NCBI GenBank assembly: GCA_020061965.1
Contig: JAGUXG010000211.1
Span: 1-38,159, forward strand
Direction of reading: 5' to 3'
DNA length: 38,159 nucleotides
From: a bacterium
GTDB lineage: Bacteria > UBA9089 > UBA9088 > JAGUXG01
The stretch's first letter is position 1; each line of letters begins with the position of its first letter. The position numbers and the translations under genes are program-made. The notes under the pieces were generated by a model. It had not been told where the DNA came from, searched no databases, and saw nothing but the letters and a program-made list of their open reading frames with translations. Positions 30,129 through 34,817 of this stretch are shown here, in pieces.

Positions 30129-30459
30129 TCCATAGAGAAGGTTTAAGATAAATCCATCAAAGAAACCCTGACCTACACGATTACTTATGCAAACGAAAGA
30201 CCTGGAACAGTGACGGAATATTATTGAGGTGTTGCCGGAGAATGTGAAATTGTCCATAGTCCATAGTCCACAGTCCATAGTCTATGGACCATCGACTATC
30301 GACTATCGACTAAAAAGTCCACAATCCATAGTCAGATATTGGTATAATAACAAATGGCAGGAAGCTTTTAGTGAAGATGCCACAAAGATAAGATGGATAA
30401 TTCCAGAGATAAGCCCAGCAGGGTCTGGCACAGTCAGTTTTACAGTAAAAGTGGAATAA
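30129..30459 (+). pseudogene. Remnant of a DUF11-type C-terminal module (in-frame stop plus 5-nt deletion)
   Basis: Translates as ..IEKV*DKSIKETLTYTITYANERPGTVTEYY*, then shifts frame to LPENVKLSIVHSPQSIV...RWIIPEISPAGSGTVSFTVKVE. It is paralogous to 32530-32889 and 37690-37988. Confidence 0.75.
30252..30335 (+). repeat. 12-unit heptanucleotide tract with inverted halves inside the DUF11 remnant
   Basis: GTCCATA GTCCATA GTCCACA GTCCATA GTCTATG GACCATC GACTATC GACTATC GACTAAA AAGTCCA CAATCCA TAGTCAG. Confidence 0.9.
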
Positions 30460-30495
30460 ATTTCGGTAATATTTTATAATAGCTTTATAAACAAG

Positions 30496-31374
30496 ATGTT
30501 AAAAAGGGTTTTTTCTGACATAAAAAAAGGTTTGGTTAACTATTATGGAGAAAGGCTTATATCCATTGTTGCCTTTGGGTCAAGGGTTGAAGGAAAAAAT
30601 GGTTCAGAGTCAGATCTTGACCTGCTGATAGTGGCTAAAGATATAGAAAAGAATAGGATTAAAAGGATACCAGAGATGGTGAAATTAAAAAGGAGATTAT
30701 CAATAGGGATGCCCTTAGACATCCTTTTGGTCTCAAAAGAGGAGTGCAGAGCCAATTTTAAGAACCACAATCCCCTCTATCTTGATATTGCTATGGAAGG
30801 AAGGATACTCTTTGATAGAGGGTTTATAGGGAAGGAGATAGCATCTGTTCAAGGGTATATTGAAGAAAAGAGGCTAAAGAGGGATGAGAAGACATGGTTT
30901 TTCCCAGTTGCATATCGCTTAGCCACCCCTCTTTCTCCTGTTAATAATCAAGAATGGGCAAATGTATGGTTGGCTGATGCAGAAAGAGAGACAAAGATAG
31001 CTCATCTCCTTGAAATGGAAGGCTTTTATGATAAATCTACTTACCATTGTCAGCAGGCGACAGAGAAGGCAATAAAGGCTGTCCTTATCTGCTTTGGTGA
31101 GTTCAAAAAAAGCCATTTTGTAGCTGATGCTTTGAGAGATAGGGCAAATGGGATTGAAGATAGTGAGTGGAGAGAAAGATTGCTCTCCCTTTCCGAGTTT
31201 GGAGAAGAGATAGAACCACAGGTTTCTCTGAGCAGGTATCCAGGGTTTAATGGCGAGGGTCTATGGATACCAGCAGAAGAGTATAAAAATGAAGACGTAA
31301 AAGGTTTGATAGAAAAGGCTGAATTTGCAGTAAAGATAGGCCTTGGATTTATAGATTGGTGGTTTAAGAGATAA
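30496..31374 (+). CDS. Fused minimal nucleotidyltransferase (MNT) and HEPN-domain protein
   Basis: N-terminal half has GSRVEGKNGSESDLDLLIV (NTase G-S ... D-x-D). C-terminal half has YHCQQATEKAIKAVL...KKSHF...LSRYPG (HEPN, PF05168-like, as remembered). Confidence 0.8.
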   Translation: MLKRVFSDIKKGLVNYYGERLISIVAFGSRVEGKNGSESDLDLLIVAKDIEKNRIKRIPEMVKLKRRLSIGMPLDILLVSKEECRANFKNHNPLYLDIAMEGRILFDRGFIGKEIASVQGYIEEKRLKRDEKTWFFPVAYRLATPLSPVNNQEWANVWLADAERETKIAHLLEMEGFYDKSTYHCQQATEKAIKAVLICFGEFKKSHFVADALRDRANGIEDSEWRERLLSLSEFGEEIEPQVSLSRYPGFNGEGLWIPAEEYKNEDVKGLIEKAEFAVKIGLGFIDWWFKR

Positions 31375-31601
31375 AATGAACAAGCTTTAAGTTTTTAGTT
31401 TTTTAGATTGGAGGTGATAAAGATGTTTAAGAAAGGAATAATGGTTTTAGGGATGCTGGTGATTCTTGTAATGCCGGCCAAAGGTGAATGGATTGGATTT
31501 ACTGAGAAAGCAACTAAAAGCCCTCCTGAGATTAAGGTAGTCAAGGATGACGATTCAGGGATTACCTTAGAGGCAAATATCTTTGGGATGGAAGTTAAAG
31601 A

Positions 31602-31624
31602 GGTTCAAGGTTCAAGGTTCAAGG
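31602..31624 (+). repeat. (GGTTCAA)x3 heptanucleotide tract at the first frame break
   Basis: Read directly. The upstream frame stops 14 nt after the tract. Confidence 0.9.
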
Positions 31625-31752
31625 TTTTCAGATGCTGAGTATTCCGGGCCATGAATACAGCTTTACTCAGGAAGTTGGCAAACCCAAATTACCCGTTATT
31701 CAAGTCATGCTCGCCATCCCGGATAATGTAGATATTAACCTTTCTTCTCTTT

Positions 31753-31787
31753 CAACCTACAACCTACAACTTACAACTTACAACCTT
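31753..31787 (+). repeat. (CAACCTA/CAACTTA)x5 heptanucleotide tract inside the coding sequence
   Basis: CAACCTA CAACCTA CAACTTA CAACTTA CAACCTT. The same units form the right arm of the intergenic element at 17300-17326. Confidence 0.9.
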
Positions 31788-32765: not shown

Positions 32766-32896
32766 ATATTGGTATAATAACAAATGGCAGGAGACCTTTA
32801 GTGAAGATGCAACAAAGATAAAATGGATAATTCCAGAGGTAGCACCAGCATCCTCTGGCACAGTTAGCTTTACAGTGGAGGTGAAGTAATTGTAAA

Positions 32897-33406
32897 ATGG
32901 AAAAGGCGTTTAAGGTTATAAATGAGATGTCCAAAAAGGGCATACTTACCGATTATGCAATCTGTGGTGCAGTTGCAACAATATACTATACTGAACCCTT
33001 TGATACTTATGATGTTGATATATTTTTCATCCCTCCTGAAAAGGAGAAAATGATTATATTAACGCCATTTTATGACTGGTTATTAAAAGAAAAAAAATAT
33101 AAAGCTCACAAGGAATACATTCTTATAGGGGAAACACCTGTTCAATTTGTTCCTACTGCTACTTTTTTAGAAGAAGAGGCTGTTAAAAATGCTGTTGAGG
33201 TTGTTTATAAGGAAATGAAATTAAAAATTTTAAGGCCAGAGTATCTAATAGCGGTATTTTTGAAGGTTTATAGATTAAAGGATAAGGTAAAGATAAAAAA
33301 ACTTCTTGATGAGACTGAAATAAATAGAAATCTTCTGATGGAAATCTTAACAAAATATAACTTAAAAGAAAAATTTCAAGATTTTATGGAGAAATACTAT
33401 GAATAA
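32897..33406 (+). CDS. Predicted nucleotidyltransferase-fold protein (toxin-like), family uncertain
   Basis: 169 aa. ICGAVATIYYTEPFDTYDVDIFF fits the NTase hG[GS]-x9-13-DhDh pattern. The C-terminal helical region contains LKILRPEYLIAVFLKVYRLKD. Confidence 0.45.
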   Translation: MEKAFKVINEMSKKGILTDYAICGAVATIYYTEPFDTYDVDIFFIPPEKEKMIILTPFYDWLLKEKKYKAHKEYILIGETPVQFVPTATFLEEEAVKNAVEVVYKEMKLKILRPEYLIAVFLKVYRLKDKVKIKKLLDETEINRNLLMEILTKYNLKEKFQDFMEKYYE

Positions 33407-33569
33407 TTTAATTGCCAAAAATGAAGGAGGGGTAAGAAAATACAGAGAGAAAATCCTTAAAACAAAAGAGGAATATCGTCAATGGCTTGCAAAATTACCT
33501 TTTGAAAAAAAGATAGAAATTCTTAATAAGTTAAAAAGAAGGGAAAAATTCCTAAAAAAATTTAAGTAA
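33399..33569 (+). CDS. 56-aa basic helical protein overlapping the upstream stop (ATGAATAA), not in the ORF track
   Basis: Hand translation gives MNNLIAKNEGGVRKYREKILKTKEEYRQWLAKLPFEKKIEILNKLKRREKFLKKFK. The 8-nt overlap suggests translational coupling. Confidence 0.4.
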   Translation: MNNLIAKNEGGVRKYREKILKTKEEYRQWLAKLPFEKKIEILNKLKRREKFLKKFK

Positions 33570-33656
33570 AATGAGGCAAGAAATGAAGAGATTGCTAATT
33601 TTGATAAATGGGTGCTGTGCTAGTTTCAGGCAGATGTGCTGGCTAATGGCTATCTT

Positions 33657-33732
33657 AAAGATAAAATGGATAATTCCAGAGGTAGCACCAGCATCCTTTG
33701 GCACAGTCAGTTTTACTGTGGAGGTGAGGTGA
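33657..33732 (+). pseudogene. 76-nt orphan copy of the DUF11 tail (direct repeat of 32814-32889)
   Basis: 70 of 76 nt are identical to 32814-32889, including the stop position. It sits inside a chimeric 53-aa frame (33571-33732). Confidence 0.8.
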
Positions 33733-33779
33733 AATGGGTGTGCCGAGCAAGTTTATTAGTTTGAATAATAGGAGCAAAA

Positions 33780-34817
33780 ATGTTTAAACCAAATTTTAGA
33801 TATATAAACAAAATAGTCCGGTTACTTACCAGAATTTCTGCAGCAAGAGAGGCAATACTCAATTCACCTTTAATTCCAAAATGGGAAGTAGCCTTAAGGC
33901 GTGAAGCGATAATCCATAGTGCCCATTCATCTACGAGCATTGAGGGAAACAGATTGTCTCTGAAACAGGTAAGTGACTTGGCTCAGGGAAGAGAAGTAAT
34001 GGCTACCCGAAAGGATAAACAGGAAGTTTTGAATTATCTGAATGTTCTGGAAAATATTGGGGAATTGACAAAAGGTGGTTCTATAGTTGAAAAGGATATT
34101 TTAAGTATCCACCATAAGGTAACAAAAGACACCTTAGATAATCCTGATGATTGCGGGGTTTATCGCAGACGCTATGTCGTGGTGGTAAATAGATTTACCG
34201 GCGAGGTCTTTTTTAGACCACCCCAAAATGAAGATGTGCCAGGATTAATAAAAAATTTGGTTGAATGGATAAACTCAGGTGAGGCAAAAGAATTAGACCC
34301 TGTTATTGAGGCAGGAATAGCCCACTATGAATTCGTCAGAATCCATCCTTTTATTGATGGAAACGGCAGAACTACAAGGGTTTTGGCAACTTTAATCCTT
34401 TATCTGCAAGGCTTTGACACCAAACAGTTCTTTTGCCTTGATGATTACTATAATTCGGATAGACCAGCTTATTACAAGGCATTACAAAGCGTTAATCAAA
34501 AGACCTTGGATTTAACTGACTGGTTGGAATATTTTGTTGAAGGGGTAGATGTAAGTCTCTCGGCAGTTAAAGAAAGAACAGTAAGACTTAGCAGTGATAG
34601 ATTGAGAAAAGCCAAGAGAGGACAGATTTCTTTAACCGAAAGGCAGATGAGGATTGTGGAGTTTATAAACCGGAATGGGAAGATAAAAGCAAGTGATATC
34701 GCAAGGATGTTTAGTATCAGCAGACAGGCTGCATTGAAAGAAATAGGAAAATTGGTGAAATTAGAGGTTGTTTTGCCAAAAGGAGAAAAGAGAGGGGTAC
34801 ACTATGTCTTATCTTAG
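33780..34817 (+). CDS. Fic-family protein (AMPylase-type) with N-terminal inhibitory motif and C-terminal winged-helix domain
   Basis: Fic motif HPFIDGNGRTTR. Upstream STSIEGN fits (S/T)xxxE(G/N). The C-terminus RQMRIVEFINRNGKIKASDIARMFSISRQAALKEIGKLV is wHTH-like. Confidence 0.9.
   Translation: MFKPNFRYINKIVRLLTRISAAREAILNSPLIPKWEVALRREAIIHSAHSSTSIEGNRLSLKQVSDLAQGREVMATRKDKQEVLNYLNVLENIGELTKGGSIVEKDILSIHHKVTKDTLDNPDDCGVYRRRYVVVVNRFTGEVFFRPPQNEDVPGLIKNLVEWINSGEAKELDPVIEAGIAHYEFVRIHPFIDGNGRTTRVLATLILYLQGFDTKQFFCLDDYYNSDRPAYYKALQSVNQKTLDLTDWLEYFVEGVDVSLSAVKERTVRLSSDRLRKAKRGQISLTERQMRIVEFINRNGKIKASDIARMFSISRQAALKEIGKLVKLEVVLPKGEKRGVHYVLS

Follow-up and report, generated by a model that had tools for sequence, protein, structure and literature searches.

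The window analysed here, a 38,159-nucleotide (nt) stretch of DNA, comes from an uncultivated diderm bacterial lineage of groundwater. Towards one end of it, genes for secreted or surface proteins that share a C-terminal domain alternate with small, predicted toxin-antitoxin (TA) or defence genes. The shared segment encodes a C-terminal DUF11 domain (PF01345, now CLIPPER) of ~300 nt, or ~100 amino acids (aa), and is referred to below as the tail; the small genes that follow the tails are referred to as cassettes. The tails recombine with one another, and the tail-then-cassette layout recurs in related genomes. The reading that we prefer, with a probability of roughly one half, is that the region is a flexible island in which the shared tail acts as a homologous-recombination repeat and addictive cassettes gather beside the tails.

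Layout of the tail and cassette array

A repeat search and Pfam scans bore out the order and coordinates of the elements given in an initial annotation of the window. All elements lie on the + strand:

30105-30459, +: tail copy, a remnant with no gene body (alignment, repeats, mosaic test)
30496-31374, +: cassette 1, a fused nucleotidyltransferase (NTase)-HEPN gene of 292 aa with MntA/HepT-type domains (Pfam, NCBIfam, PADLOC)
31423-32889, +: S1, a surface/secreted protein gene (open reading frames, Pfam); tail copy at 32546-32889
32897-33406 and 33399-33569, +: cassette 2, an NTase gene of 169 aa and an overlapping gene for a 56-aa partner
33657-33732, +: tail copy, an orphan tail end of 76 nt, 93% identical to 32814-32887
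33780-34817, +: cassette 3, a Fic gene with a C-terminal winged helix-turn-helix (Pfam, PADLOC, motif)
34902-37988, +: S3, an intact secreted protein of 1028 aa (Pfam); tail copy at 37680-37988

The distance from the stop codon of the preceding tail to the cassette is 36, 7 and 47 nt for cassettes 1, 2 and 3, matching the range of 7 to 47 nt given initially. The remnant had been placed at 30129-30459; it is a genuine tail remnant, but its homology begins near 30105 and takes in the entire domain.

A direct-repeat search of 29.5-38.2 kb returned a 74-nt family with members at 30384-30457, 32814-32887, 33657-33730 and 37913-37986 that are 78-93% identical, and alignment extended the homology further in three of the four. 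A degenerate tail pattern had exactly four matches in the window and none in 100 shuffles. Exact-pattern scans for the tail DNA in two contig collections (genome_contigs and metagenome_contigs), from which the source contig is also absent, gave no hits.

The orphan tail end matches the end of the S1 tail, and cassette 2 therefore sits between direct repeats. A 53-aa open reading frame (ORF) at 33571-33732 begins 2 nt past the 56-aa gene and enters the 25-codon orphan tail in frame; it was called as a gene by JGI and may be a chance open frame.

The cassettes were characterised by domain searches. Cassette 1 matched NTP_transf_2 (4.7e-7) and HEPN (2.2e-15) in Pfam and PDC-S09 in PADLOC. Its match to the NCBIfam MntA equivalog was weak (24.7 bits, against a cut-off of 60) and, as it is one fused ORF, it falls outside the two-gene definition of the type VII-like MntA-HepT systems. 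A split NTase and HEPN pair found beside ybeY in a related locus (L003) was rejected as its orthologue, the identity being only 31%. The 169-aa protein of cassette 2 gave no match in its own Pfam scan. Of its 131 homologues (47-83% identity), several at 60-73% identity are annotated with PF09970, the DUF2204 nucleotidyltransferase family, and a small ORF of 56-89 aa comes after the DUF2204 NTase in every context examined. Cassette 2 is thus a conserved two-gene module, widespread in bacteria and archaea, with a predicted TA role. Cassette 3 matched Fic in Pfam (5.5e-21) and SoFic in PADLOC (2.4e-60), and its translation holds HPFIDGNGRTTR, which fits the motif HxFx(D/E)GNGRxxR; its score against the NCBIfam SoFic equivalog (88 bits, against a cut-off of 550) makes it SoFic-like at the family level only. 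The 84-nt spacer between the Fic gene and S3 holds a 12-nt tandem repeat, TGGTTGTCATTT, in 3.2 copies (34821-34858). Exact-protein look-ups of the window's cassettes returned the source contig as the sole match.

The shared tail domain

CLIPPER, formerly DUF11, is a CnaA-like immunoglobulin domain of surface proteins in which an isopeptide bond is often present (PMC12617251). The bond is an intramolecular Lys-Asn isopeptide formed with a catalytic Asp, and some DUF11 domains are without it (PMC12617251). The tails of the 1028-aa protein and of a 381-aa ORF scored 33.6 and 32.8 bits against the Pfam model (gathering cut-off 24.6), and TIGR01451 also exceeded its cut-off for the window's tail proteins. 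An AlphaFold2 model of the last 102 residues of the tail was all-beta, with a pLDDT of 94.6. Compared with solved structures, it resembled the CLIPPER domain 9IFR with a top query TM-score of 0.74, at weak Foldseek E-values of ~2e-3.

The proteins that carry the tail are unrelated in their bodies and have the tail alone in common. S1 is made up of a signal peptide, a C25-propeptide-like region, FG-GAP, fn3 and the CLIPPER tail; within it, the ORF 31632-32777 matched Propeptide_C25, FG-GAP, fn3 and DUF11 in Pfam. S3 holds SNase, lamin-tail (LTD) and GH114-like domains ahead of its CLIPPER tail. Signal-peptide-like N-termini were found in the tail proteins whose starts were read, S1 and S3 among them. 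The tail is therefore a lineage-specific, common C-terminal module of secreted or surface proteins, with a possible role in anchoring or sorting.

Recombination between tails

The remnant at 30105-30459 spans the whole domain. It is decayed 5' of 30229, where it carries a 5-nt deletion and stop codons, and has an open frame from 30229 through the stop codon. Up to 30399, 44 of its 57 informative sites side with the copy near 32.7 kb, whereas from 30409 on, 14 of 18 side with the copy near 37.9 kb. The initial annotation had described the remnant as a mosaic of these two copies, and a maximum-chi-square permutation test supported this (p=0.0006); the breakpoint, proposed at 30365-30390, was moved ~20-40 nt rightward, to 30399-30409. 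The identical 44-nt run that had been reported was found at 30403-30446 and 37932-37975. Among the window's tails, the 3' halves are 81-89% identical and the 5' halves 62-73%, and across loci the nearest neighbour of a tail's 3' half is not that of its 5' half. The mosaic and the contrast between the two halves show that the tails recombine with one another.

It is very improbable that assemblers joined unrelated loci or strains at the repeated tails and so created both the alternation and the mosaic. All of the data are metagenome assemblies, and the tails do have exact runs of 44-51 nt in common. However, each orphan fragment is flanked on its two sides by unique sequence, with no repeat at its 5' junction; tail copies on one contig differ pairwise by 7-38%; and the pattern is seen again in contigs of no fewer than six further samples or metagenome-assembled genomes (MAGs) in NCBI, JGI and ENA.

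Tails and their downstream genes in related genomes

Whereas a search with a single tail protein sequence gave one homologue only, searches with tail alignments and profiles led to 13 related loci in NCBI MAGs, the JGI data set Ga0180007, the Hainich groundwater assembly ERZ1292640 and ENA; they are referred to by locus numbers (L082, L148 and so on). Tails were counted in the window and in 10 further loci, which come from six or more other assemblies. A TA or toxin gene lies directly after 12 of 19 informative tails, those whose downstream sequence could be read. As a control, the downstream genes of 20 distant genes that end in DUF11, taken from other lineages at 25-37% identity, were scanned, and none had a TA or toxin gene downstream (0/20; Fisher p=1.3e-5). 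A TA or restriction-modification (RM) module also lies inside eight of 10 tail-to-tail intervals, and in most loci the next gene begins 0-75 nt past the tail stop.

The initial annotation had called for a comparison with relatives, and different cassettes were found to follow the tails in the 10 loci. The genes found after tails were VapB and PIN (L084, L089 and L148); RHH and PIN (L085); MazE-like and PemK (L086 and L082), with PemK also after an orphan tail (L149); DUF433 and DUF5615 (L087); Macro (L090); a DUF2204/AbiEii NTase with a small ORF (L082); trypsin with an RM methylase (L086); and small ORFs of unknown type (L088 and L148). In L086 the order is tail, MazEF, half tail, trypsin with RM, then an fn3 fragment with a tail. 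In L089, VapB-PIN is followed by a deleted gene plus tail. L148 runs from VapBC through a surface gene with tail to a second VapBC and, further on, a frameshifted tail, a small pair, a surface gene with tail and housekeeping genes. Tail-bearing gene calls in the related loci include PQQ beta-propeller and Tricorn-like proteins, and one tail-like protein was found in a MAG labelled Candidatus Desantisbacteria, a mere hint at the taxonomy.

The closest relatives were identified by PdxJ, which is 91% and 89% identical to that of the window in two MAGs (JAZDOR... and JASEHA...) and at most 68% identical in the next relatives; L148 belongs to the MAG with 91% identity. In the JASEHA relative, the DNA beside ybeY carries a serine protease, a split NTase and HEPN pair and a methylase fragment but lacks a CLIPPER array. 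The ybeY side of this close relative thus has another, tail-less gene set, so the region beside ybeY is a variable island.

About nine of 24 tails are orphaned or truncated, and their truncation points all differ: what is kept may be the whole domain, the part from residue ~31 on, the part from the EVLPE motif on, the final 25 codons, or just the 5' half. Remnants of this kind, together with frameshifted genes and TA pairs elsewhere in the lineage's DNA, could be the product of ordinary decay, in which an array of paralogous surface genes erodes and TA genes are nearby because the genome or its islands are TA-rich; partial deletion within a co-directional array, up to a retained downstream gene, would leave a 3' fragment. 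Such decay is nevertheless an unlikely explanation, given the difference between these tails and the 20 distant ones and given that the mosaic and the homogenised 3' halves point to active exchange. Nor does a single tandem duplication followed by decay, an alternative raised in the initial annotation, account for the array, because the gene bodies are unrelated.

Cassettes as independent units

The cassettes and the surface genes were found in different combinations. The MazEF cassettes of L082 and L086 are 82% identical and their flanks differ; L085 and L089 have the same downstream surface gene with a different TA pair in between; and L087 and L088 have a tail and ~70 nt of promoter-like spacer in common and then diverge. 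The DUF2204 module lies between RtcB and SerRS in archaeal-type contigs and beside housekeeping genes in other phyla. A DUF2204 and small-ORF cassette in L151 is 86% identical at the nt level to window positions 32885-33571. Flanking it (L151 1-276 and 940-1159) are the 3' end of a PD40-like gene without CLIPPER and a second, degenerate version of that end from which 90 nt are missing internally. CLIPPER tails are therefore not the only setting in which a gene end, a cassette and an orphan end follow one another. Several cassettes have their own promoter-like spacers and their own start codons. Taken together, these comparisons indicate that the cassettes are independent units, which move separately from the surface genes.

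Duplication of a gene's 3' end around an insert is what elements integrating into gene 3' ends classically leave behind. The tail end could accordingly be an attachment site at which non-autonomous elements, like cis-mobilizable elements or integron cassettes, are inserted by a recombinase encoded elsewhere that duplicates the 3' end of the target. The direct repeats around cassette 2, the short distance from most tails to the next gene and the two copies of the upstream gene's 3' end in L151 would all fit this explanation, and both inserts share the order of intact 3' end, insert and orphan end with prophages and islands, such as e14 in icd, that enter the 3' end of a gene and bring a replacement end with them. 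It is nonetheless quite unlikely. Domain scans bore out the initial annotation in finding no integrase, transposase or reverse transcriptase encoded in the window, whose end is the end of the source contig (JGI 3300037880, Ga0394678_26052), and none was seen among the gene calls of the related loci. Boundaries are not constant, as the left ends and lengths of the orphan tails vary; the insert in the window is <0.8 kb; and the presence of the same cassette at a different "site" in L151 is contrary to sequence-specific targeting.

The tail end itself was also examined. No attC-like fold was found in the last ~95 nt of the four tails, which gave z-scores of -2.9, -1.5, -1.2 and -0.1 and had no long hairpin in common; some tails have a hairpin of the form CCAGAGG...CCTCTGG that other tails have lost. 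Extra constraint at the DNA level was rejected, as synonymous codon identity between data sets was 0.56 in the tail end and 0.52 in the 5' half. The absence of such a fold and of excess synonymous conservation further disfavours an attachment site.

The last tail codons (E/K-V-K/R) read as GAGGTGA, which resembles a Shine-Dalgarno (SD) sequence, for example at window 32872-32899, L082 308-326, L090 1880-1904 and L148 7848-7868. The next ORF starts 0-8 nt past the tail stop, behind GAGGTGA, in five to six loci, which would permit translational coupling. The cassettes might on this basis be functionally coupled to the surface proteins, with defence or abortive-infection genes (Fic/SoFic, NTase-HEPN, PIN, PemK) co-expressed, by read-through and the SD-like GGAGGTGA, with proteins that are contact points for phages or predators. 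The match of the Fic protein to the SoFic defence model is in keeping with this, as is the lack of terminator-like sites on the + strand between the genes of 29.9-38.2 kb, where there is also no excess of promoters or terminators in the array. We consider the coupling improbable, because many cassettes have promoter-like spacers of their own, the set of cassette types is diverse, and modules of this kind occur next to housekeeping genes as well. Selection for GGAGGTGA at the tail end was rejected: the codon choice that creates it, a G-ending Lys or Glu codon before Val, is the genome-wide norm (83%, p=0.23).

Heptamer arrays and frameshifts in the surface genes

The initial annotation had described the gene at 31423-32889 as frameshifted, which is correct, and had missed the heptamer tracts as the cause. 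This heptamer layer behind the frameshifts is new relative to that annotation. The arrays of the region are:

30249-30312, +: heptamer tract of the remnant, (GTCCATA)n followed by inverted (GACTATC)n (Tandem Repeats Finder, TRF)
31601-31626, +: (GGTTCAA) array of 3.7 units, site of the first S1 frameshift (TRF, repair test)
31751-31786, +: (CAACCTA/CAACTTA) array of five units, in frame
32693-32742, +: GTCCATA/GACTATC tract of the S1 tail, an array followed by an inverted array, site of the second frameshift
37829-37862, +: (GTCCAYA) array of four units in the S3 tail, in frame

Both S1 frameshifts lie in heptamer arrays. In silico, edits to the unit counts alone (-2 or +1 units at 31601-31626 and -1 unit at 32693-32742) restored one ORF of 481 or 488 aa that runs from the signal peptide to the stop codon of the tail. 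These two heptamer slips are the only lesions of S1 over 1.45 kb, which speaks against the ordinary decay considered above. The tract of the S1 tail is 14 nt (two units) shorter than that of the 30-kb copy and 37 nt longer than that of the 37.9-kb copy, folds as a hairpin (z = -4.2) and leaves the last ~45 codons of S1 out of frame. The tract of the remnant is in frame, is 51 nt longer than that of the 37.9-kb copy and also forms a hairpin (DNA fold z = -4.5).

Within the tail, the heptamer tract sits between the EVLPE and YWY..WQ motifs, where the structural model would have it encode a beta-hairpin (strands 49-55 and 60-65). Different units occupy this same site: GTCCAYA, GGGATTA, GGGGTCA, AATTGCG, GTCATCA and AAGTGCA. 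The unit counts were compared between paralogues and genomes, not inside one population. Four units are usual in intact genes, and a four-unit tail exceeds the shortest array-free tail (L086b, 63 nt) by exactly 21 nt. For GGGGTCA, a series was found at one site, with one unit in L086c (in frame), two in the second tail of L148 (frameshifted), three in L090 and four in L084 (in frame). Unit counts are in frame (x1 or x4) in intact genes and out of frame in broken ones. These comparisons suggest that changes in heptamer number would act as a slippage-type on/off switch, or as a route of decay, for the surface proteins.

Heptamers are in excess throughout the DNA surveyed, which consisted of the window, L002, L003 and L082-L091. 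In these 93 kb there are 27 period-7 arrays of at least three units, against 0.3 in shuffles (~90-fold), and the arrays of period 6, 8 and 9 number three, two and zero. The unit families are GGTTCAA, CAACCTA, GTCCATA, GGGATTA, GGGGTCA and AATTGCG. The CAACCTA/CAACTTA unit found in S1 also makes up the arms of intergenic palindromes at 17.3 kb and 27.7 kb. Palindromes of this type, ~140 nt long, were located at 17208-17355 and 27617-27764 in the window and at L082 1690-1805, L083 5815-5914, L089 1935-2191 and L148 10275-10631. Each is built from a conserved head of ~32 nt (TTATACCCAAGTAAATCAGGTTTACAAAGAGA), a heptamer arm, a loop and an inverted arm (DNA fold z ~-2.5). On the opposite strand the head resembles a promoter, reading TTGTAA-17-TATAA(T). 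In its sequence, the palindrome resembles a mobile terminator-plus-promoter module or a miniature inverted-repeat transposable element.

The 32-nt head adjoins the MazEF cassette in two loci, on opposite sides and in opposite orientations (L082 1771-1802, -; L086 1289-1320, +). In L082 it lies to the left of MazEF, after a truncated tail and a hairpin, and points into the cassette; in L086 it lies to the right and abuts the EVLPE codons of a half tail. This geometry, seen in two examples, suggests reciprocal rearrangement products at a heptamer tract. The head looked like the terminal inverted repeat of a cassette transposon, but a profile search showed it to be a promoter-like motif (TTGCAA-17-TATAAT on the opposite strand) that also occurs upstream of housekeeping genes. 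The same search found none inside the window's array, in the explanation of which the head plays no part.

In contingency loci such as those of Haemophilus and Neisseria, where surface-protein genes phase-vary by slipped-strand mispairing, tandem repeats with units that are not multiples of three lie in surface ORFs, alleles differ by whole units and out-of-frame alleles are otherwise intact, as is the case here. The arrays of this lineage differ from them in having copy numbers of only 1-5 and units that vary between paralogues at one site; some take the form of an array with an inverted array in a hairpin, and the switch site falls close to the 3' end, within a beta-hairpin that belongs to the final domain. 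Judged by these features, the S1 frameshift sites would qualify as candidate contingency loci.

Tandem heptamers of heterocystous cyanobacteria are known as short tandemly repeated repetitive (STRR) sequences. A lineage-wide excess of tandem heptamers in several families, many of them in intergenic hairpin elements, is common to STRR and the arrays described here. Unlike STRR, the latter are found in a non-cyanobacterial host, are also present in coding sequence at a recurrent position, and are accompanied by inverted copies and a promoter-like head. STRR have been used as a fingerprinting target in Nostoc (PMC5088731).

Recombination at the tails as an explanation for the array

The best account that we can offer for these observations is the flexible island, which would be composed of two kinds of module: secreted or surface genes that end in a CLIPPER tail, and small, autonomous TA or defence cassettes placed right after the tail stop. 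The tail is present in many co-oriented copies and therefore behaves as a homologous-recombination repeat; ordinary homologous recombination and gene conversion between the copies generate mosaics and make the 3' halves of one genome more alike. The remaining steps are our inference. Tail exchange combined with illegitimate deletion would leave orphan tails of variable length. Cassettes would accumulate beside tails for two reasons. Homology between tails would open many sites to a cassette that lies next to one, by tail-anchored exchange or by Campbell-type re-insertion of circles that carry tail and cassette. An addictive TA or RM module between direct repeats would in addition be shielded from tail-to-tail deletion and would shield its neighbours in turn. 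Heptamer slippage would add on/off or decay states of the surface genes, S1 being off at two arrays.

The initial annotation had proposed that the tails serve as recombination handles. This stands in so far as the tails recombine and the layout recurs; a dedicated or site-specific mechanism lacks support. A more ambitious version, in which the tails carry an integrase-free cassette system that spreads TA and defence genes by RecA-type excision, re-insertion and exchange between cells, as a functional analogue of an integron based on a coding repeat, and in which a lineage-specific heptamer amplification writes frameshift switches into a tolerant beta-hairpin of the tail so that each surface protein could be switched off and on, appears doubtful.

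Several points count against the flexible island. There is no direct evidence that cassettes are moved by tail homology. That the homology between tails stops at the stop codon follows simply from their being paralogous coding domains. TA genes are common in this lineage as a whole, as illustrated by a PemK pair at 22.0-22.5 kb of the window and by the NTase and HEPN pair of L003, so the association may partly reflect co-residence in islands. Seven of the 19 informative tails have no recognisable TA gene downstream. The independence of the loci is imperfect, as the related contigs are mostly short and one metagenome supplied several of them. Finally, arrays of 3-5 heptamers would slip rarely.

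Comparison with known cassette arrays

In its working, the array would be most like a chromosomal integron, or a cluster of attC sites lacking an integrase (CALIN), with TA cassettes. In both, small co-oriented cassettes are separated by a repeated element of ~70-300 nt, TA cassettes with their own promoters are interspersed, and cassette content varies between relatives. In chromosomal integrons, TA cassettes that contain a promoter are lethal to the cell if cassette excision is too frequent (PMC13108822). The TA cassettes thereby counter-select the loss of array segments (PMC13108822), an effect that may extend to the array in the window. Unlike the integron, however, the array has as its repeat the coding 3' end of surface genes and not a structured attC site, and the window encodes no IntI. 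Its boundaries are unfixed, it includes large surface genes, and its recombination is apparently homologous and not site-specific.

The initial annotation had likened the layout to the orphan arrays of contact-dependent inhibition (CDI; cdiA-CT/cdiI) and Rhs loci. Exchange in those loci has been proposed to proceed by homologous recombination at the conserved fragment. The likeness extends to the retention of conserved-region fragments beside toxin-like modules, which in CDI and Rhs loci lie downstream of a full-length gene. It does not extend to the cassettes, which are autonomous TA or defence modules that start at their own ATG, and not fused toxin tips with an immunity gene. The fragments in the window are extreme 3' ends that include the stop codon, so no fusion is possible, and the VENN or PxxxxDPxGL demarcation motif is not applicable.

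No published description of the pairing of a CLIPPER tail with a TA cassette, or of heptamer arrays in this lineage, was found in literature searches that were not aimed directly at either.

Other features of the window

Two further elements lie to the left of the array:

22019-22545, -: TA pair, a 73-aa ORF and a PemK toxin, between tamB and a beta-helix/NosD-like surface gene
19564-21225: fn3 protein with a T9SS Por_Secre_tail, after the beta-helix/NosD-like gene

The PemK pair is away from the CLIPPER tails, so TA genes are not confined to tails. The Por_Secre_tail protein shows that the organism also has C-terminal sorting domains of the type IX secretion system (T9SS) type. The beta-helix/NosD-like gene (21219-22148, -) contains a 66-nt tandem repeat of 3.2 copies with 86% matches at 21558-21765. 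Apart from this T9SS-tailed protein and the PemK pair, the rest of the window encodes housekeeping proteins, namely PBP1, LpxK, an amidase, NuoE/F, BioD/A, L3/L4, HisA/F-like proteins, FdhD, BamA, TamB, PyrB, PdxJ and YbeY. No Rfam family was matched anywhere in the window.

Right after the last tail, an 80-nt stretch at 38017-38097 is 81% identical to L003 4549-4631, which follows a truncated methyltransferase fragment and adjoins ybeY with the relative orientation reversed. The stretch may mark a conserved boundary of the island or be what is left of a gene end. A short dispersed repeat of 30-100 nt (85-97% identity) was found at window 67-106, L084 1406-1445, L090 3879-3908 and L002 47-142.

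Significance

If the association between tails and cassettes is mechanistic, no dedicated recombinase is needed for a conserved coding segment to organise an array of cassettes, and TA modules would spread via the repeats and stabilise them. The ideas developed for integrons and for CDI and Rhs loci would then gain a new substrate, in an almost unstudied lineage. The heptamer arrays point to a repeat-generating process that has so far been tied mainly to the STRR of cyanobacteria, and to possible phase variation in environmental, non-pathogenic bacteria.

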